A DNA stretch of 12,402 nucleotides. It comes from Promethearchaeota archaeon (GTDB taxonomy: Archaea; Asgardarchaeota; Thorarchaeia; Thorarchaeales; Thorarchaeaceae). Each line of letters begins with the position of its first letter. Within the stretch, counting starts at the first letter, position 1. The stretch covers positions 15,854 through 28,255 of the forward strand of contig JALVPN010000174.1 of the NCBI GenBank assembly GCA_027031765.1. The letters are read 5' to 3'. Of this stretch, positions 1 to 8,561 are shown one piece after another. The notes under the pieces were generated by a model. It did not search any database, was not told where the DNA came from, and saw nothing but the letters and a program-made list of their open reading frames with translations. The position numbers and the translations under genes are program-made.

Positions 1-143
1 ACGAGCACCAGTGCCACCGACTTGAGCGAGACCTCTCTCTCCAACAGCGTACCCGGCACGAAGATGCCAATGCCGTCGTATTCCTTCATCTCTTCAAGGT
101 CCGGGTCGTCTAGCACCGCAATCTCCTCGCGCCCTGCCGTCAC
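1..143 (-). CDS. N-terminal fragment of a hypothetical protein running off the left edge (MTAGREEIAVLDDPDLEEMKEYDGIGIFVPGTLLEREVSLKSVALVL...)
   Basis: Hand translation: open frame from GTG at 143 (first start after in-frame TAA at 150-152) to the window edge. Acidic, protein-like composition and codon usage like neighbouring genes. Alternative start GTG at 116. Not in the ORF track because it is truncated. Confidence 0.6.
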   Translation of the reverse strand, partial: MTAGREEIAVLDDPDLEEMKEYDGIGIFVPGTLLEREVSLKSVALVL

Positions 144-546
144 AAGCGATTATATGGCTTGTGGGTGTGGTGTGGCGCAGTGGGTCGCAGCTGGGTGCGG
201 TGGAGTGCTGTCCAGTGCGTCCGGGTCGCGTGCGCTGTGTCCTTGCGCCGCCCGGTCTTGCCGGGTGCACAGTGCCACTCGACACTGCAGGCCGCTTGCG
301 TGGTCGGAACAGCCTTTATGGACTGGGTGCACCTATCATTCTGATAGTGGGCGCTGTACTGGTCGTCGCGGCTGACCACCCGGGCCGTCCTCCCTGTGAC
401 AACCCACCATGTCCCCAGGCCGGTCACTCCATGCCAGGGGTGCGCCGTCCCATGCCGCTGGTCGCGCCCCCGGGAACAGTGGCCCAAGTCCGTGCCACGC
501 GTACGTGCCCTGCAGCTGCCCTGCTACCTGCACACTGGTGATACCC

Positions 547-2547
547 ATGGTCAACGACACTGACGGCTACCGGCCACCTAGGAGGGGCACGGCAGTCCTG
601 TTGATGACTATGGTGCTCCTCGCATCCTACGGCGTCATTATAGTATGGCCGCGTCCCCCAGACCCCATGTCCCTGTCGGCGCGGGTTGCGATAGTGGACT
701 CGGGGATAACTCCTGACGCTTCACTTGCCCCACGCATAGTCGTCGCGCGGAGCTTCATCAACCGTCAGTTCGGATATCCATTTGATGACAACTCGACCAC
801 AGACAGCGAGCCCAAGGGGTCGCCACACGGCACATACGTCGCCCGGCTGGTGGCCACCCAGTTCTCTGAGGTGGCCCTCGTCAATGCCAAGGTGGTGTCA
901 TCAGACAATATCGCCTCCGTCACTGCCATTGCAGAGGCCATCTACTGGGCCGTGCGTGAGGCTGGCTGTACGGTCATCAACCTGAGCATTGGCGGCAGCC
1001 CGACGAATGGTTCCATCTTGGAAGACGCTGTGCGCTGGGCCTTCAGACAGGGCGTGTGTGTCGTCGCAGCAGCGGGCAATACGGGACAGACCGGGGTGGC
1101 CGGCACATCTGTCGAGTCGCCAGCACTGTGTCAGGAGGCAATTGCCGTGGCAGCTGTTGACAGTGCCGGGAACCCGTTCTCCTTTTCTGCCCGCGGGCCG
1201 CTGAGAGGACGTATAGCGAAGCCCGATATCTCGGCACTGGGCTCCTACTCTGAAGGCGGGGGCGCAACGCTCCTCGGTACGAGCTTTGCCGCACCACGGG
1301 TGAGCGCCGTAGCAGCGGCAATAATCGCACGGTGTGCAGAACGTGGCTGGCGGTGGACGCCCGGCATGGTCAAGGCACTCCTCCTTGCCAGTGCAAGACA
1401 CCTCGAAGGAGAGGACTGGGAGGTGGGCGCTGGCCTGGTCGACCCTGACGCCGCACTGGAGTACCTTGAGCACGTGCCACGCAGGGACCGGCTCCCACTG
1501 GTCGTCGCAGCCCTGCCAACACGTGGCCCCTATGAGTTCGAACGCTGGTTCGTGAACTCCACGTACACCATCCCAATATCCGTCTTCGCTTCCTCCAACG
1601 TCACGTTCGACGTCTTCTACACGGGCTCGGCTGCACCGTGGATTCACGGCCCACCAGTCCTCTCGGTCAACCAGACCGGGCTCCTGATAGTGCAGCTGAA
1701 TGTGGTCTCGGATGTGGCCATGACAGACCTGCGCTCTCTTGTGACCCTCGTTGCTGACGAGTACCTGACTGTGCGTGCCCAGTTCTCCTTCGACCTTGAC
1801 ATCCCCCGTGCCCGGGTCCTTTTTGATGTCAGTCACTCCCTCTGGTGGCTCGACTCTGTGTATGGCCAGTTCCGCTACCTGTACTGCTCGCTCACCCGAC
1901 TGGGGATTGCTGTTGAGGAGATCGATACGCCGGGCGAGCTCAGCGCCGAACGACTGGCACGCCATGATGCCGTACTGATACTTGACCCGTGCACCCGTGT
2001 CCACGATGCATACGGCAGGGAACGTCTGCCCCCCATGCAGTACACTGCTGAGGAAATCCAGCTCTACCACTCCTACTTTGCAGATGGCGGGTCGCTCCTC
2101 GTAGCAGCACTTGACAACAACAGTCTGAATGTGCCCGCAGTCAACCGGCTCCTCCTCGGCTTCAACGTATCACTGGACTACGGACGTGTCCCTGAGGTCA
2201 CCTTCGTCGTTGGTGGGATTGCGTCCACGGCCCTCGTGTCCGACCTGTCCGACCACCCCGTGACCCGCGGGGTGTCCTCCTTTGACCACAACGGCTGCAC
2301 GCTCAACCACTCCCTGCCATGCTACAGCATTGCCCGTGTCCAAATCCGAGTGAGTGACCGCGATGGCAATGAGCACCTGGTGAAGAGGAGTGTGGTCGTG
2401 GGCAGGGAGTCTGAGAGCGGCTCTCGGCTGATTGTCTCTGGCAGCAACTTCTTCCTTGACAACTGGGCCTTCAGTGGCCTGTACCAGTCGGACGACAATG
2501 AGCGTTTTGCAGTCCAGTGCGTCCTCTGGCTGGTCGGACTGTTGTGA
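547..2547 (+). CDS. Membrane-anchored S8 (subtilisin-like) serine protease with C-terminal DUF4350/class-I-GATase-like domain; site-1-protease-like architecture
   Basis: Catalytic motifs VAIVDSG (Asp, 697), HGTYVA (His, 826), AAAGN (oxyanion Asn, 1078), GTSFAAP (Ser, 1282). N-terminal hydrophobic stretch AVLLMTMVLLASYGVIIVW. C-terminal domain from about 1807 (RVLFDVSH...GGSLLV...HPVTRGV...RLIVSGS). Start moved from 409 to ATG 547 because the upstream in-frame part is low-complexity and Pro/Ser/Ala-rich. Confidence 0.92.
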   Translation: MVNDTDGYRPPRRGTAVLLMTMVLLASYGVIIVWPRPPDPMSLSARVAIVDSGITPDASLAPRIVVARSFINRQFGYPFDDNSTTDSEPKGSPHGTYVARLVATQFSEVALVNAKVVSSDNIASVTAIAEAIYWAVREAGCTVINLSIGGSPTNGSILEDAVRWAFRQGVCVVAAAGNTGQTGVAGTSVESPALCQEAIAVAAVDSAGNPFSFSARGPLRGRIAKPDISALGSYSEGGGATLLGTSFAAPRVSAVAAAIIARCAERGWRWTPGMVKALLLASARHLEGEDWEVGAGLVDPDAALEYLEHVPRRDRLPLVVAALPTRGPYEFERWFVNSTYTIPISVFASSNVTFDVFYTGSAAPWIHGPPVLSVNQTGLLIVQLNVVSDVAMTDLRSLVTLVADEYLTVRAQFSFDLDIPRARVLFDVSHSLWWLDSVYGQFRYLYCSLTRLGIAVEEIDTPGELSAERLARHDAVLILDPCTRVHDAYGRERLPPMQYTAEEIQLYHSYFADGGSLLVAALDNNSLNVPAVNRLLLGFNVSLDYGRVPEVTFVVGGIASTALVSDLSDHPVTRGVSSFDHNGCTLNHSLPCYSIARVQIRVSDRDGNEHLVKRSVVVGRESESGSRLIVSGSNFFLDNWAFSGLYQSDDNERFAVQCVLWLVGLL

Positions 2548-2607
2548 AATGACTGCTATGAAATGAATGGATGACCTGTGGCTACTTACTTGGGGACAGA
2601 CGGTGTC

Positions 2608-2991
2608 CTACAGCACTGTTGCAATCTGTTCGGTCGCGTTCTTGGCAGCAAGCACCAGCATACCGGGCTTGACCTTCCGCGTGGCAGCAAACATCAGGAT
2701 TGCCTTCTCACCGGCGCTCTTCATGAGTATCAGGCCCTTCTCGTTCGTGAGGAGGACCTGCTCCTGCTCGCCCTGTTCCATCTTCTCGGCCGCCAGGTCC
2801 GCAACGTTGAGGATGGATGCCGCTATCGCTGCAATCTCAGCCTCCTCATACCCCTCTCCCATGGCTGACACGATGGGCAGTCCTTCCTTTGACAGGAGAA
2901 TCCAGGCCTTGATACCGGCGACTATGTCGGTCGCGTCCTCGACTATCCTCCGGACTTGTTCTTGGACTTCTTTCAGGTCTTCACCGATCAA
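2608..2991 (-). CDS. Roadblock/LC7 (MglB-like) domain protein
   Basis: 127 aa with the Roadblock pattern: N-terminal helix, GIKAWILLSKEGLPIVS, IAAIAASIL helix, EQVLLTNEKGLILM strands, C-terminal helix. TATA-like box upstream. Confidence 0.9.
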   Translation of the reverse strand: MIGEDLKEVQEQVRRIVEDATDIVAGIKAWILLSKEGLPIVSAMGEGYEEAEIAAIAASILNVADLAAEKMEQGEQEQVLLTNEKGLILMKSAGEKAILMFAATRKVKPGMLVLAAKNATEQIATVL

Positions 2992-3043
2992 TGTCCTGCA
3001 CCACGGTAGGAACTGCCTCGCAGTGAGCGTCTGGTAATGCGCG

Positions 3044-3050
3044 TTAATAA
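3044..3050 (-). promoter_or_regulatory. Putative archaeal TATA box (TTATTAA, preceded by AAACC) for the Roadblock gene
   Basis: Isolated AT-rich island in GC-rich DNA about 53 nt upstream of the TTG start at 2991. Confidence 0.5.
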
Positions 3051-3188
3051 GGTTTGATGTGCCGAAATACGGCCGCCCACTGACCTCTGGACAGGACAGT
3101 GCCGTGGTGGGCTCGCCGCCGGTTGGCGCGACTGCCCGCCGCTCCTAGTATACCCCTTGGTCGGACCCGGAGTCCACCGGCCTGCCCC

Positions 3189-3830
3189 TCAGTCAGGGCG
3201 CCGCGTACAATCACCGTCCATGCTGTGTCCTGCAAGGGTCCTGCAGAGCTCTGCGGCGATGTCTGCGGAGATATCATAGGCCCACTGGTGCCTGGCCGCG
3301 CTGTTGACAAACCCGCGGAGGCACTCCTCTGCAACACCGGACCTGCGTAGTGCCACCAACCGTGCCAGCATGTCTATCACGTCCGCGTCCCTGACAATCT
3401 TGGCCTCCGCAGACTCGCCCACGCTCAGGTCTTCCCACAGTCGCCTGACCCACTCACCAGTGGCACCAAGACCGCTGACAAGGTGCTCAAGGACTGCACC
3501 CTCACATGCCGCCTTCGTGTCGTGTACCGCACGGTCGACCCCTTCAATCCCGGTCCTGGGGATATCTGAGAGCAGAGACTCCGGTAGGTCGTGGACCGTG
3601 CACATTGCTAGGGCCCTAGCCAGGTCGACATCCACACCGGTCGACTCTAGGTGACGTCCAATGATCAGTGCCACGAGGGTGGTGCCCCAGATGTGCGCCG
3701 CCACACCCTCCGGCCGCTGGCCTGCGCACGTGCCAGATGTGACCCACCCACTACGGGGGAGGTCTTTCAGACAGCCTGCTTGGAGGATGAGCCGCACAGC
3801 GTCCTGCACATCCAACTCTGATGCCACCAT
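3189..3830 (-). CDS. HD-domain phosphohydrolase, YfbR/HDDC2-like 5'-deoxynucleotidase family
   Basis: Motifs LKDLPRSGW, EGVAAH, TVHDLPE, DADVIDM match the HD_3/HDDC2 pattern. Likely start is ATG 3830 (MVASELD); the track start at 3863 adds 11 aa. Confidence 0.88.
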   Translation of the reverse strand: MVASELDVQDAVRLILQAGCLKDLPRSGWVTSGTCAGQRPEGVAAHIWGTTLVALIIGRHLESTGVDVDLARALAMCTVHDLPESLLSDIPRTGIEGVDRAVHDTKAACEGAVLEHLVSGLGATGEWVRRLWEDLSVGESAEAKIVRDADVIDMLARLVALRRSGVAEECLRGFVNSAARHQWAYDISADIAAELCRTLAGHSMDGDCTRRPD

Positions 3831-3946
3831 TGGGACAGTACCGTGTCGGTGGGGGTGGGCCATGTGGGGGTCATGGTCTTGGGGCCATGAGTCAGTGGCC
3901 GGGCCGGTCAGGGCAGACCTCCGCCTTGGGCCCCCGCACCTCTGTC

Positions 3947-5101
3947 TCAGCCACTGTAGTGGTCGACCGAGATGGTACCGTTGAGTATCATCTCCCTGAC
4001 CCCTCGCAGGAGCGGCATGTACGTCTCGCTGGCCTTCTTGATGTATGTCGAGCTGAACTCGAAGCTGGTGAGGTTGACGCCACCGTTCGCGAGGTTGTAC
4101 TCCAGTATCTCTGTCCCGTTGAACTGTCCCCAGAGGGTCTCGTTGAGCATGTCGTATACCGCCATGTCGGCCCTGAAGACGACGCTGGTCGTGATCCAGC
4201 TCGGGCCAGACAGGATGTCCGGGTCTGGGTTGCCGTAGTAGTCGAGGTTGCCCTCCGCCGCAATTGCGAGCGGCATCCTCGTCTTATTGAGCGGCATTAT
4301 GTTCGGGTCGCCCAAGGTCTTGTTCGCTGCAAGCATGGCCTGTCGGAGGCCCACAATGCTGCCCCTGATGGGTGCGAAGATGAGCGATACCTCCTCGTCC
4401 ATGTACAGATGGTATGCTGTCTCGTTCGCCAGCTCTATGTTCTCGTAGCTCTCAAGGTACACTATCGGCTGTACGAGGGTGACCCGGCCTCTGAGGTAGT
4501 CCGAACTGTTCACGAGCTGCAGCCCCTGAAGGAACCCGTAGACAAGGCTGCCCACTGTCGGGTCTTCCTCATAGGAGGCCATTATCGCGACCCGTCCCGT
4601 GTTGTTCAGTTGCGGACTGAACGCAATGAGCCCACCAATGAAGCCTGCAAGGAATGCCGCCTCTTCTGGGATGAAGGATGTAGACGCCACGTTCTTGAGC
4701 GACGAAATCCCCCCGATTATGCCAAAGTTCTGGTTCGGGAACTCCTGTGCAACGGTCTCTACAGCTGGCACCAGCTCTTTGCCGACTGCAATGATGATGA
4801 GGTAGCGTCCTGTCTGCGCGAACGCGCGTATGTCCTCCTCTGCCTCCGCTGCCGTGGTCGGGAACGCCCCGTCCCTCAAGACCCTCGGGTCATCAAAAGC
4901 GACAACGATGTCGCCTGCCAAGTTGTTCATTCCGACCTTCGTCTGGGCACCAAGGCCCATGTCTTCGAAGCCCGGGTTCATTACCACAATTGCCACCCGT
5001 GGGGGTTCGTATTGCTCAGTTAGGAACAGCACACCGCCAACTGCTCCAAAGACAATGACAATTATCACCAGCGATGCCAGGATATTCGACCTTGAGCTCA
5101 C
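3947..5101 (-). CDS. BMP-family (PnrA-like) substrate-binding protein with N-terminal transmembrane anchor
   Basis: N-terminal TM helix ILASLVIIVIVFGAVGGVLFL. BMP-like segments IIIAVG, SFIPEEAAFLAGFIGGL, ITTSVVFRADMAVYDML, YNLANGGVNL. GGAGG ribosome-binding site at 5109-5113 before the GTG start. Confidence 0.85.
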   Translation of the reverse strand: MSSRSNILASLVIIVIVFGAVGGVLFLTEQYEPPRVAIVVMNPGFEDMGLGAQTKVGMNNLAGDIVVAFDDPRVLRDGAFPTTAAEAEEDIRAFAQTGRYLIIIAVGKELVPAVETVAQEFPNQNFGIIGGISSLKNVASTSFIPEEAAFLAGFIGGLIAFSPQLNNTGRVAIMASYEEDPTVGSLVYGFLQGLQLVNSSDYLRGRVTLVQPIVYLESYENIELANETAYHLYMDEEVSLIFAPIRGSIVGLRQAMLAANKTLGDPNIMPLNKTRMPLAIAAEGNLDYYGNPDPDILSGPSWITTSVVFRADMAVYDMLNETLWGQFNGTEILEYNLANGGVNLTSFEFSSTYIKKASETYMPLLRGVREMILNGTISVDHYSG

Positions 5102-5511: not shown

Positions 5512-7608
5512 TTGCCTGTCAGGACCCCTAACAGACTTGCCGGTGAGAAGAGTCCGTACCTGCTGCAACATGCCTACAACCCTGTAGACTGGTATCCGTG
5601 GTGTGATGAGGCCTTCGAACGGGCCCGCCGGGAGGACAGACCGGTCTTCCTCTCGATTGGCTACAGCACGTGCCACTGGTGTCACGTGATGGAACGGGAG
5701 AGCTTCGAGGACGGGGAGGTCGCGGAGCTGCTGAACAGGTGGTTTGTGTGTATCAAGGTCGACCGGGAGGAGCGGCCCGACATTGACAGTGTCTACATGC
5801 GTGCTGCGGTGCTCATCAACGGCACGGGTGGGTGGCCGCTCACAGTGTTCATGACCCCTGACAGGGAGCCCTTCCTCGTTGCGACCTACATCCCGAAGAC
5901 CAGCTCTCCAGGCCGGGTGGGGTTATTGGAGCTGTTGCCCGCGGTTGCGAGGGCGTGGGCCGATGACAGGCAACGGGTCCAGCGTGTGGCCAGGGAGGTG
6001 GTGTCAGCCCTTGGACGGAGGCGTACTGGTGGTGGGCCGGCGCTTGGGCCTGGAGTGTTGGACAAGGCCTTTGCGGACCTCTCTGATAGGTACGACGAGC
6101 ACAACGGCGGGTTTGGTACCGCGCCGAAGTTTCCCAGCCCACACCAGCTCGTCTTCTTGCTGCACTACTGGGCGAGGACAGGTGAGGGACGTGCACTGGA
6201 AATGGTGCGGACGACCCTGACGGCCATGCGGCGCGGGGGTCTGTTCGACCACCTCGGATATGGTTTCCACAGGTATTGTACTGATGCGGAATGGCGAGTG
6301 CCACACTTTGAGAAGATGCTCTACGACCAGGCACTGTTAGTGCTCGCGTACTCTGAGGCGTACAGTGCGTGTGGGGACGCGTACTTTGCCGGTGTGGTGC
6401 GCGAGACTGCTGACTACGTCTTGGGGATACTGCTGGACGATGGCGGCGGGTTCTGCTCGGCCGAGGACGCGGACAGCGAGGGTGAGGAGGGCAGGTTCTA
6501 CCTGTGGACGGCTGAGGAGATCCGCAGAGCCCTTGACAACAGGGATGACTACCGGGTGTTCGCGCACCACTTCCAGGTGCGGGAGGAGGGCAACTTCGTC
6601 CGGGAGGCGACCGGCAGTCTGACGGGGCAGAACATCCTGTACGCACCACGCACGGTGGAGAGCACAGCAAGAGACCTGGGCCTCAGCACTGATGAGGTGC
6701 AGGCAGCCCTTGAGAGGGCGCGGGGACGCCTGCTGGAGATTAGGGGGCACAGGGTAAGGCCACACCTTGATGACAAGGTGCTGACCGACTGGAACGGCCT
6801 CATGATTGCCGCACTTGCTAGGGCCTACCGTGCAGTGGGCGACAGTAGACTGCTGGTGGCAGCACGGGGGGCCGCCGACTTCATACTGCGTACGATGATT
6901 GCTGGGGACGGCCGTCTCTACCACCGCTACCGTGATGGTGAGGTGGCAGTCCCTGGTCTCTTGGACGACTATGCCTTTCTCATCTGGGGCCTCCTTGAGC
7001 TCTACCAGTCCACGTTCGAAGAGCAGTACCTTGAACAGGCACACCAGCTGTCCGGGGAGATGCTCACCCTGTTCCGTGACCCGGACGGTGGGGGCCTGCT
7101 CCTTACTGGGAGGGACGCGGAACCCCTGATTGCCGCTACGAAGCACGCCTACGACGGGGCCACGCCCTCTGGGAACTCCATTGCAGCCCTCGACCTTGCC
7201 ATGCTTGACCTGCTGCTCGCTGACCCCACCCTGCGGGGTGCCGCCATAGAAACAGTGCGCGCATTCGCGGGGGACATCCTGCGCTCGCCGTCGGCGTTCA
7301 CAATGATGCTCGTGGCACATGGGTTCATCATCGGGCCGACTGCCCTCGTGGTGGTGGAGGGCCGCCCGGAGTGGCCCGGCACACGGTCGATGGTGAGTGC
7401 TGTGCGGGAGGACTACCGGCCGGGTGTCCTGGTCCAGGTGGTACCGCCCCACGGTCAGTCCACACCCGGTCTCCAGTCGGGCGCGGCCCCAAGGTCCTGG
7501 CAGACAGGATTGCTACCGCGGGCGCATGTCTGTCGTGGGGGGATGTGTTCCGCACCGACCTCCTCCGTATCACGGCTCTTGGAGCTCCTGGACTCGTCAG
7601 TACCCTGA
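5512..7608 (+). CDS. yyaL: Thioredoxin-domain-containing protein, YyaL/DUF255/SPATA20 family (thioredoxin-like plus alpha/alpha-barrel)
   Basis: Family hallmarks [93 protein letters not shown]. Confidence 0.96.
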
Positions 7609-7654
7609 CAGGGCGACTGCACACATCCCAGCGACGCCGTGTGACCCGCGAACC

Positions 7655-7662
7655 TATAAATA
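7655..7662 (+). promoter_or_regulatory. Putative TATA box (TATAAATA, preceded by GAACC)
   Basis: Best TATA-like sequence in the window, about 180 nt upstream of the tandem-Roadblock ATG. Confidence 0.6.
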
Positions 7663-7841
7663 ACTCCGTGCGTGGTACATTCTACCGCAAGACGGCACCG
7701 GCACCTGTGTACCGGGTGTTGTGGTGGCGGCCGGCAATGCGGATGACCGCACCCGGTTGCGTACCAGGGTGGGCCGGTACCTGGGGCGGAAGCCGTCATC
7801 ACAATGTCCCAAAGAACCACAACCCCTGGCCGGTCATTGAA

Positions 7842-8561
7842 ATGTCCGAACACATCCTTGGTGAGGTGGCCCGACTCCTTGAGTCGACGATTTCGATGGA
7901 CGACTGTATACGTGCCGTGGTGCTGAGCACACGTGAGGGCGTCGTTGTTGCGTCAGTGTCACGCGACGACTCAGTAATCCCCGACGTCACGGCAACGGTC
8001 TCTGCTGCCCTTGTGTGGGCCGGCGATGCTGCGATGGACAAGGTGACCGGCGGCACACCCGACTGTCTTGTACACACCACGGAGACCGAGACCGTACTCA
8101 TTGTTGTCGGGCGTGACTTCCACATCGTAGTGGTGCTGCGCCGTAACTGCACCTCTCGACTGGACATCGAGCGGCTCATCCCGGTAGCGCGGTCAGCCGT
8201 ATCGCGGGCCGAGATGCTGATGGGCTCTGCCGAGGAGTTTGCACGGGAAGACCTCCTCAGTATGCTGATGGCATCGTTCCCGGAGGTCGAACGCGCGATG
8301 CTCGTGACGCTTGACGGGCTGCCTGTGATGGCTGCAGGTCTCGCCGACAGCGTTGAGGTGGCAGGTCTTGCTGCCTCGATTTTTGCGAACGGGCTGACGT
8401 ATTCAATTGCGACCCGGTGGGTGGTGGTGCGTGCCGGGGCCTACAGCCTACTCGTCATCCGCGTGGACGAACAGCGGCTGCTGGTCGCTGGGACCCATGC
8501 CAACAGGCCTGAAGAACTGTGCCAGAGGATTGTTGACCTCCTCCAGTCCGGCCTCTTCTAG
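7842..8561 (+). CDS. Tandem (two-domain) Roadblock/LC7 protein, 239 aa
   Basis: Two Roadblock-like repeats: CIRAVVLSTREGVVVAS...TATVSAAL and EVERAMLVTLDGLPVMA...VAGLAASIF. True start is ATG 7842 (MSEHILGE); the track ORF from 7371 overlaps yyaL and its extension looks non-coding. Confidence 0.8.
   Translation: MSEHILGEVARLLESTISMDDCIRAVVLSTREGVVVASVSRDDSVIPDVTATVSAALVWAGDAAMDKVTGGTPDCLVHTTETETVLIVVGRDFHIVVVLRRNCTSRLDIERLIPVARSAVSRAEMLMGSAEEFAREDLLSMLMASFPEVERAMLVTLDGLPVMAAGLADSVEVAGLAASIFANGLTYSIATRWVVVRAGAYSLLVIRVDEQRLLVAGTHANRPEELCQRIVDLLQSGLF

Follow-up and report, generated by a model that had tools for sequence, protein, structure and literature searches.

Does the architecture of the eukaryotic site-1 protease (S1P), the enzyme that gates the SREBP, ATF6 and CREB3-family pathways as well as the maturation of arenavirus glycoproteins, have a counterpart in archaea? 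The question is raised by a gene in a 12,402-nt stretch of thorarchaeal DNA (GenBank assembly GCA_027031765.1, contig JALVPN010000174.1, positions 15,854 to 28,255; hereafter, the window), which belongs to contig C174 of a genome of 2.95 Mb that is 95% complete. The gene (547..2547, + strand) encodes a 666-aa membrane-anchored protease, P0002, in which an earlier, sequence-only reading had recognized a possible archaeal sister or precursor of S1P. Our analysis indicates that P0002 is probably a competent, membrane-anchored surface subtilase that has the S1P body plan, is homologous to S1P domain by domain, and represents the short form of a mainly Asgard family in which a subtilase (S8) domain is joined, through a beta-sandwich, to a GIFT (GATase1-like) domain. 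The literature searches returned nothing that combined Asgard archaea with site-1 protease or with the GIFT domain, and no title or abstract suggested a full-length prokaryotic homologue of S1P; GIFT and subtilisin occurred together only in the papers on the S1P structure and in one paper on intraflagellar transport (IFT).

Layout and catalytic residues of P0002

According to the list of open reading frames (ORFs) and the translation of the window, the P0002 frame is open throughout its 666 codons and ends with a stop codon at 2545-2547. A longer frame starting at 409 is available, but the start at M547 is preferred because 192 full-length orthologues align from residue 1-3 of the shorter product. 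These orthologues, as judged from the 120 listed of the 192, are 638-705 aa long and 43-55% identical to P0002, and all those that bear a name are labelled Thorarchaeota or Promethearchaeota and come from metagenomes. An AlphaFold2 model built on 38 orthologues (predicted local distance difference test score [pLDDT] of 88.4; predicted template-modelling score [pTM] of 0.84) consists of a transmembrane helix (residues 13-33), a subtilisin fold extending to about residue 310, an all-beta region (320-418) and an alpha/beta region (422-666). The order of S8 domain, beta-rich linker and GATase-like domain, as originally described, was thus borne out by the Pfam S8 match, the AlphaFold2 model and a separate model of the C-terminal domain.

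The catalytic domain (residues 42-310; 670..1476, + strand) belongs to the S8A subtilases. The Pfam family Peptidase_S8 (PF00082) matches residues 47-296 with an E-value of 2.4e-36, and subtilisin BPN' superposes on the model over 235 residues with a root-mean-square deviation (rmsd) of 1.8 A (VIA-align Z 34). P0002 displays the Asp-His-Ser order, the oxyanion-hole Asn and the subtilisin fold that define this group, with Asp51 (697..699), His94 in the HGTYVA motif (826..828), Asn178 in AAGN (1078..1080) and Ser246 in GTSFAAP (1282..1284), all on the + strand. The last three residues pair with H249, N338 and S414 of S1P, respectively, and all four are conserved in 78 of 78 sequences, namely, the 38 short-form orthologues and 40 longer relatives described below. 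Given this invariance, P0002 is predicted to be active and, as far as its sequence tells, should be a catalytically competent enzyme. The same invariance speaks against the view that P0002 is a non-catalytic surface scaffold or an accessory of a transporter. GIFT domains do occur in auxiliary proteins of ABC transporters, and weak matches to Pfam ABC_transp_aux are present in some family members, but the P0002 gene is not surrounded by an ABC-transporter operon, the ABC-2 permease encoded upstream lying past a divergent gene for an Rce1-like protease, so that we regard such a role as extremely improbable.

The sole hydrophobic helix of P0002 (residues 13-33; 583..645, + strand), which is preceded by a conserved Arg-Arg pair, has the features of an N-terminal signal anchor and implies a type II topology. 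Kyte-Doolittle analysis identified a single hydrophobic segment (residues 15-33) and none further along the chain, which ends with the last helix of the GIFT domain (651-663). R13, G14 and L18 are invariant in the 38 orthologues. Export by the twin-arginine translocation (Tat) pathway, to which the invariant Arg-Arg pair could point, was considered and dropped: the 95%-complete genome has no TatC, and the helix is therefore read as a Sec-type signal anchor that would place the enzyme outside the cell. The ectodomain contains nine N-x-S/T sequons compared to the 3.2 expected by shuffling (p ~0.0015), and seven of the nine are retained in at least 30 of the 38 orthologues. Both the excess and the conservation of these sites fit an exported, glycosylated protein, suggesting that the ectodomain faces outward and probably carries N-glycans. 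Thus, P0002 would be held in the membrane by one N-terminal helix, with the whole ectodomain outside, where its likeliest activity would be cell-surface proteolysis, by which envelope proteins would be processed or shed, or external protein degraded. The catalytic domain is preceded by only 41 residues, 21 of these being the membrane helix, and the same holds for the 38 orthologues. Because the first catalytic strand follows about 8 residues past the membrane helix, P0002 lacks a pro-domain.

Correspondence with site-1 protease

In mature human S1P, a Peptidase S8 subdomain is followed by a 'P-like' beta-sandwich (residues 479-616) and a GIFT subdomain (617-998), with two pro-domains before them and a membrane helix behind them (PMC11231238, PMC12067269); the cryo-electron microscopy structures reported in these papers show the domain order that the sequence-only reading gave for the eukaryotic enzyme. 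Among proprotein convertases, this build with a GIFT domain has been considered unique (PMC11231238), and S1P has been called 'pyrolysin-like' on account of its catalytic domain (PMC8551645). In P0002, a beta-sandwich (residues 311-419; 1477..1803, + strand), delineated by the AlphaFold2 strands at 320-418 and by the alignment with the S1P chain 8uw8_A, occupies the place of the 'P-like' subdomain and is followed by the GIFT domain (residues 420-666; 1804..2544, + strand), delineated by the domain model and by a profile of the C-terminal part of the family.

The similarity between the two proteins extends to their entire shape. A Foldseek search of the PDB with the whole P0002 model retrieved S1P first (9csd_A, E 4.4e-35; 8uw8_A, E 3.3e-33; query-normalized template-modelling score [TMq] 0.68-0.69), followed by Vpr (1e-20) and subtilisins (1e-18, with a TMq of 0.33). 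Residues 42-666 of P0002 superpose on residues 206-874 of S1P in 8uw8_A with a Z of 40.6 and an rmsd of 3.4 A over 557 residues, at 22% identity (VIA-align). Of these, the S8 domain accounts for approximately 235-265 residues and the GIFT domain for approximately 200; as the two together cannot supply 557 residues, the beta-sandwich must be aligned as well, all three domains being superposed together as a single body. Likewise, in the ESM Atlas, a eukaryotic MBTPS1 cluster is both the best match to P0002 by shape (TM 0.75 over 562 residues) and the best language-model match (0.93), so that S1P or its orthologues head the whole-protein fold search in both collections. Modelled in this way, the P0002 ectodomain is composed of an S8 domain, a beta-sandwich and a GIFT domain in the order and spatial arrangement found in S1P.

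At the sequence level, a HMMER profile of the family that includes the longer relatives and has P0002 as its first row (profile A5) aligns human S1P residues 183-852 collinearly and without a break (281.8 bits, E 1e-82). The A5 columns whose consensus resembles the motifs quoted from P0002 hold the S1P motifs GHGTFVAG, DVLNLSIGG, NPASMKQALIASARRL, RVLWDQYHN, NFRDMYQHLRSMGYFVEV, YFPEEIAKL, NIPALNELL and GGRIVLYGDSNCLDD of chain 8uw8_A. All eight pairs of motifs that the sequence-only reading had quoted are found in this alignment, with a single slip (RILWDQYH for what is really RVLWDQYH), and its claim of resemblance along the whole protein agrees with both the collinear profile alignment and the whole-chain fold comparison.

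In summary of the pairwise comparison, S1P (MBTPS1/SKI-1; MEROPS S08.063; PDB 8UW8, 8UWC and 9CSD) and P0002 have in common the order and arrangement of the S8, P-like and GIFT domains, the intact triad with the oxyanion Asn, the NLSIGG motif (including I308, which is I148 in P0002) and several blocks of the GIFT domain, and in both cases the enzyme is attached to the membrane on its non-cytoplasmic side, as predicted for P0002. By contrast, S1P carries a signal peptide and two autocleaved inhibitory pro-domains, A and B, whereas P0002 has neither and possesses an N-terminal anchor instead (PMC11231238, PMC12067269). S1P is a type I protein that ends in a membrane helix and a short cytoplasmic tail; P0002 has the reversed topology and no C-terminal helix. 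The GIFT domain of S1P is also about 130 residues longer. Furthermore, the Pfam families MBTPS1_3rd (PF23094) and MBTPS1_4th (PF23090) did not match P0002 (E up to 1 with the whole protein; E up to 10 with its C-terminal part), nor did either match the P0002 gene in a six-frame search of the genome. Across 400 Asgard genomes, PF23094 matched none in a search that had no positive control. Hence, what stands of the proposed full S1P-like architecture is the three-domain ectodomain; the pro-domains, the C-terminal anchor, the acidic specificity residues and a match to either MBTPS1 family are lacking.

The specificity of S1P for R-x-(L/I/V)-x depends on an acidic S4 pocket (D312 and D315, with T286 and N348) and on D339 in S1 (PMC12067269). 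When these sites are mapped using NLSIGG, AAGN and an invariant Pro as anchors, T286 corresponds to T126, I308 to I148, D312 to P152, D315 to S156, D339 to T179 and N348 to S191, so that the acidic residues of S1P face P152, S156 and T179 in P0002 (PMC11231238, PMC12067269). No acidic residue is present among residues 150-158 of P0002, the region of the S4 pocket, and Arg-at-P4 specificity therefore cannot be deduced for this protein. In the family at large, the position equivalent to D315 is Asp in 32 of the 38 short forms and in 28 of the 40 long forms, and the D339-equivalent position is Glu in 21 of the 40 long forms.

The GIFT domain and the S8-GIFT family

The nature of the C-terminal domain bears on whether the resemblance to S1P reflects common origin. 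Pfam DUF4350, which had been recognized in the sequence from the outset, remains below threshold in the Pfam searches with P0002 (E 0.006-0.075) and is the only domain match outside S8; with the whole protein, it covers residues 497-658 with an E-value of 0.075 and 13.7 bits, under the cut-off of 30.4. Modelled alone (pLDDT 95), the domain matches IFT52 with a Z of 23.3, OST48 with 20.0, S1P residues 619-874 with 19.5, and other GATase1 folds with 17 or less. A profile restricted to the post-catalytic part of the wider family (profile A4) also ranks IFT52 (E 1.8e-13) above the GIFT domain of S1P (E 1.7e-7). By both fold and profile, then, the C-terminal domain of P0002 is assigned to the GIFT domains, and the expected preference of this domain for S1P does not hold. 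The GIFT domains of IFT52 and OST48/Wbp1 (PDB 5FMS, 5FMR and 8BD7; 6S7O and 6C26), its best structural matches, are not attached to a protease, unlike that of P0002; IFT52 resides in the cytoplasm, and OST48 is one of the subunits of the oligosaccharyltransferase. Among the GIFT structures compared, identity is nevertheless highest with S1P (21%). If the analogy with S1P holds, the GIFT domain would be packed against the catalytic domain and give the substrate groove its shape.

GIFT proteins are numerous in the source genome. Besides P0002, it encodes a second short paralogue (L005, contig C80), a 901-aa long form (L008, contig C198) and at least seven GIFT proteins that carry no protease domain. 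The repertoire beyond the three proteases comprises L006, L007, L009, L010, L011, C151:21437-22096 and C67:32713-33801, and includes a 1357-aa frame on C67. L009 (505 aa) shows a strong match to IFT52_GIFT (E 1.5e-19) followed by a coiled-coil-like region. In L006 (G000:C106, frames 667-1800 and 1804-3282, + strand), one in-frame TGA splits an 872-aa GIFT/DUF4350 frame, which could be explained by an error in sequencing, by decay to a pseudogene or by recoding of the codon. In another genome of the same phylum (G001), L033:1786-5154 (- strand) encodes a 1123-aa protein with IFT52_GIFT (E 7.5e-29, in three stretches) and OST48_N (E 1.4e-18) matches and with C-terminal CARDB/NPCBM-associated domains, which is an OST48-like multi-GIFT surface protein.

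The best 150 representative matches to P0002 are exclusively prokaryotic or metagenomic proteins. In an exhaustive profile search, the nearest relatives beyond the thorarchaeal orthologues are proteins of 800-1400 aa that match residues 40-660 of P0002 in one stretch; the named ones come from Njordarchaeia, Odinarchaeota, Thorarchaeota and one mixed Thorarchaeota/Korarchaeota cluster, along with a 735-aa protein from Zixibacteria. Across the 400 Asgard genomes, the profile of the thorarchaeal C-terminal part matches 120 at an E-value of 1e-20 or better, with the short form present in 75 of the 85 genomes of the family to which the source organism belongs, mostly in two copies. Weaker matches, including frames of 1084-1395 aa, occur in a few other Asgard families, and there are none in the 135 genomes of the largest family sampled. 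The long forms (L008; L031 and L034 in other Asgard genomes; P0144 from Njordarchaeia) have the same S8, beta-sandwich and GIFT core as P0002, from which they differ in possessing 100-230 residues ahead of the catalytic domain, in one case with a match to the Tk-SP N-propeptide, and 200-600 residues past the GIFT domain, in some cases ending in a zinc ribbon. Such a zinc ribbon terminates the long proteases encoded by L031:1777-5700 (+ strand) and L034:3288-7058 (- strand), suggesting that a membrane span is followed by a cytoplasmic tail.

In a catalytic-domain tree (quick IQ-TREE search, 60 rows, SH-aLRT support, rooted on subtilases without GIFT), nine of the ten short-form rows, representing both thorarchaeal paralogue groups, form one clade (SH-aLRT 89), which P0124 (the tenth short-form row), the Zixibacteria protein P0132 and P0138 join, with their branching order unresolved, in a cluster supported at 93 and placed among the long forms. 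In this tree, the long forms are co-orthologous with P0002. The presence of P0132 (735 aa, bacterial by name) in the same cluster as the thorarchaeal short forms may reflect either inter-domain transfer or a binning error. MBTPS1_4th reaches the Pfam cut-off in 13 of the 400 Asgard genomes, and five of the six best matches examined are long S8-GIFT proteases. Given these matches and the nesting, the long forms are the more S1P-like members, their overall layout of pro-region, S8, GIFT and tail resembling S1P more closely than the short form does, and the thorarchaeal short form looks derived. It appears, with moderate support, nested in the wider, mostly Asgard S8-GIFT family, as a Thorarchaeota-centred version that lacks the N-terminal pro-region and the C-terminal stalk or anchor of the long forms and S1P. 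The initial description of P0002 as a sister or precursor of S1P is weakened by this placement.

A shared origin of the fused architecture has to be weighed against the possibility that pyrolysin-type subtilases with a C-terminal beta-sandwich gained a GIFT domain from a common pool separately, in archaea and in the eukaryotic stem. A pool of this kind exists in the source genome in the form of the protease-free GIFT proteins, and S8 domains followed by a beta-sandwich occur in Vpr and in Tk-SP of Thermococcus kodakarensis as well. In the family profile, the beta-sandwich section can likewise be aligned with the domain that follows the catalytic one in Vpr, and across 50 family members, Pfam IFT52_GIFT is found in 13 and MBTPS1_4th in two. 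The nearest solved catalytic domains to that of P0002 by sequence score are those of Tk-SP (PDB 3AFG and 9UES), with its beta domain behind the catalytic domain as in P0002, and subtilisin BPN' (1SBT and others), at 31-37% identity and an rmsd of 1.6-2.1 A; both lack a GIFT domain and a membrane anchor and are made with pro-peptides, unlike P0002. Against separate gains stand the superposition of all three domains on S1P as one rigid body, which separate fusions would not be expected to yield, the collinearity of the profile alignment through both linkers, the peak of GIFT identity with S1P, and the predominance of S8-GIFT proteases among the best MBTPS1_4th matches in other Asgard genomes. 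On balance, we consider independent fusion unlikely.

Several observations weigh against the preferred interpretation of P0002 as a homologue of S1P along its entire ectodomain. For the catalytic domain, Tk-SP or subtilisin outscores S1P both in single-sequence searches (P0002 and two long forms) and in the two profile searches: with the profile built from thorarchaeal sequences only (A1), S1P is matched in the catalytic domain alone, at 89 bits versus 125 for subtilisin BPN', and with A5, the 281.8 bits of S1P compare with approximately 260 for catalytic-only subtilisins and 336 for Tk-SP. The isolated GIFT domain resembles IFT52 and OST48 at least as closely as it does S1P, and S1P was not found at E-values up to 10 in searches of the PDB with the single sequence of the C-terminal part or with the thorarchaeal C-terminal profile. 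More generally, these proxy scores show no preference for S1P, which is a long, divergent branch, over other subtilases or GIFT proteins. Subtilases usually need a pro-domain to fold, and P0002 has none. Finally, the tree search was quick and its outgroup non-monophyletic, so that the nested position is moderately supported. A common origin of the fused protein with S1P is suggested by architecture, geometry and collinearity, not by a tree. That the Asgard proteases combining S8, beta-sandwich and GIFT are the direct archaeal ancestors of eukaryotic S1P is a tentative proposition to which we assign a fairly low probability.

Genomic neighbourhood and biological significance

The genes around P0002 bear on whether the protein acts as a 'site-1' enzyme. 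Upstream and divergent, the window includes the 5' end (1..143, - strand) of a gene for an Rce1-like (CPBP) intramembrane protease (L015:4247-5143, - strand, equivalent to window positions -753..143; PF02517, E 1.5e-18), the remainder of which lies outside the window and which is separated from the P0002 gene by approximately 400 nt. Downstream and convergent, a Roadblock/LC7 gene (2608..2991, - strand; PF03259, E 1.4e-11) ends 60 nt past the protease stop codon. This tail-to-tail pair recurs in five related loci (L013, L014, L017, L019 and the P0045 locus), where the spacing ranges from an overlap to 8 nt, and at the divergent P0124 locus (L017) the Roadblock gene is the sole surviving neighbour, all others being different. 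We do not assign the Roadblock/LC7 gene, a conserved neighbour, any part in the mechanism.

Further along the window are genes for an HD hydrolase, a Bmp/PnrA-like binding protein (3947-5101, - strand; PF02608, E 2e-20) and a DUF255 thioredoxin-domain protein (5512-7608), a second Roadblock-like gene, a helix-turn-helix gene and glmS. The second Roadblock-like gene is a 396-aa frame (7371-8561, + strand) that overlaps the end of the DUF255 gene by approximately 240 nt and matches Roadblock/LC7 at residues 295-340 only; because the syntenic loci call a protein of 240-330 aa, its true start is probably further downstream. In related thorarchaeal loci, an Endo_dU (PF01949) gene of approximately 205 aa sits between the Roadblock and HD genes; here, these are separated by 197 nt (2992-3188), and the Endo_dU gene is missing. 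A + strand ORF at 2567-3037 was considered as an operon partner of P0002 and rejected, as it has no family match and overlaps the - strand Roadblock gene; the + strand ORF at 3821-5023 likewise has no family match and lies over the - strand Bmp/PnrA-like gene, and both ORFs are probably shadows of the genes on the opposite strand.

The order of protease, Roadblock, HD hydrolase and Bmp genes is repeated in four orthologous thorarchaeal loci, in three of them with the helix-turn-helix gene and in two with glmS, and this recurrence implies that most of the neighbourhood reflects kinship. At the locus of the paralogue, the neighbours are a P-type ATPase and a major facilitator superfamily transporter instead. 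Adjoining this P-type ATPase in the source genome and in another thorarchaeal genome is a gene for a 651-aa protein (L016:10047-11999, + strand; L018:1-798, - strand) with a weak match to E3_UFM1_ligase (PF09743), which may be a eukaryotic signature protein resembling components of the UFM1 system.

Could P0002 be a true archaeal counterpart of S1P, which clips a membrane-tethered regulator that is then released by an M50/S2P protease or by the Rce1-like CPBP enzyme? The body plan of P0002, the identity of the S2 gate residue (I308 of S1P, I148 here) and the Asp found at the D315-equivalent position in most of the 38 orthologues are compatible with such a role, as are three M50 genes in the genome and the Rce1-like neighbour, which is kept at four orthologous thorarchaeal loci (L013, L014, L019 and the P0045 locus). 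However, the Rce1-like neighbour is absent both from L017, the locus of the distant homologue P0124, and from the paralogue locus, and the whole 12-kb region, unrelated genes included, is syntenic among close thorarchaeal relatives, so that a functional link between the two proteases is unsupported. The genome search for M50 had been suggested along with the original note and did recover these genes, albeit elsewhere than in the window; M50 is, however, universal in the comparison (14 of 14 control genomes), which makes its presence uninformative with respect to a pathway partner. Moreover, the S4 and S1 determinants of S1P (PMC12067269) are replaced by P152, S156 and T179, the membrane topology of P0002 is opposite to that of S1P, and the only helix-turn-helix gene of the window encodes no membrane segment, in accord with the initial remark that no membrane-tethered transcription factor is visible there. 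Hence, in the survey of genomic M50 genes and among the genes of the window, nothing ties P0002 to S2P or to a two-step pathway, and no evidence of the hinted pre-eukaryotic regulated proteolysis was seen. To our knowledge, P0002 has no known SPRING, no SREBP/ATF6-type substrate and no pathway link either. We regard the counterpart scenario as quite improbable; both the ancestral and the signalling interpretations are less likely for the short form represented by P0002 than for its long relatives.

The present finding, that of a surface subtilase with the S1P body plan, concerns protein architecture only and not regulated proteolysis in archaea. The conservation of a three-domain ectodomain in archaea suggests that the build of S1P is older than eukaryotes. 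For enzymology, P0002 offers a small, pro-domain-free form in which to ask how the GIFT domain shapes the active site of a subtilase. Should the Asgard S8-GIFT proteases be direct ancestors of S1P, the latter would be an Asgard-derived 'eukaryotic signature' protein, and the Asgard GIFT repertoire, with protease-borne, IFT52-like and OST48-like versions in one genome, would represent the pool for all three eukaryotic GIFT proteins. The thorarchaeal short form would then be a side branch, in which the core of the ectodomain works without a pro-domain. A placement of S1P within the Asgard family in a tree would trace one more part of the secretory pathway of eukaryotes to the archaeal host.

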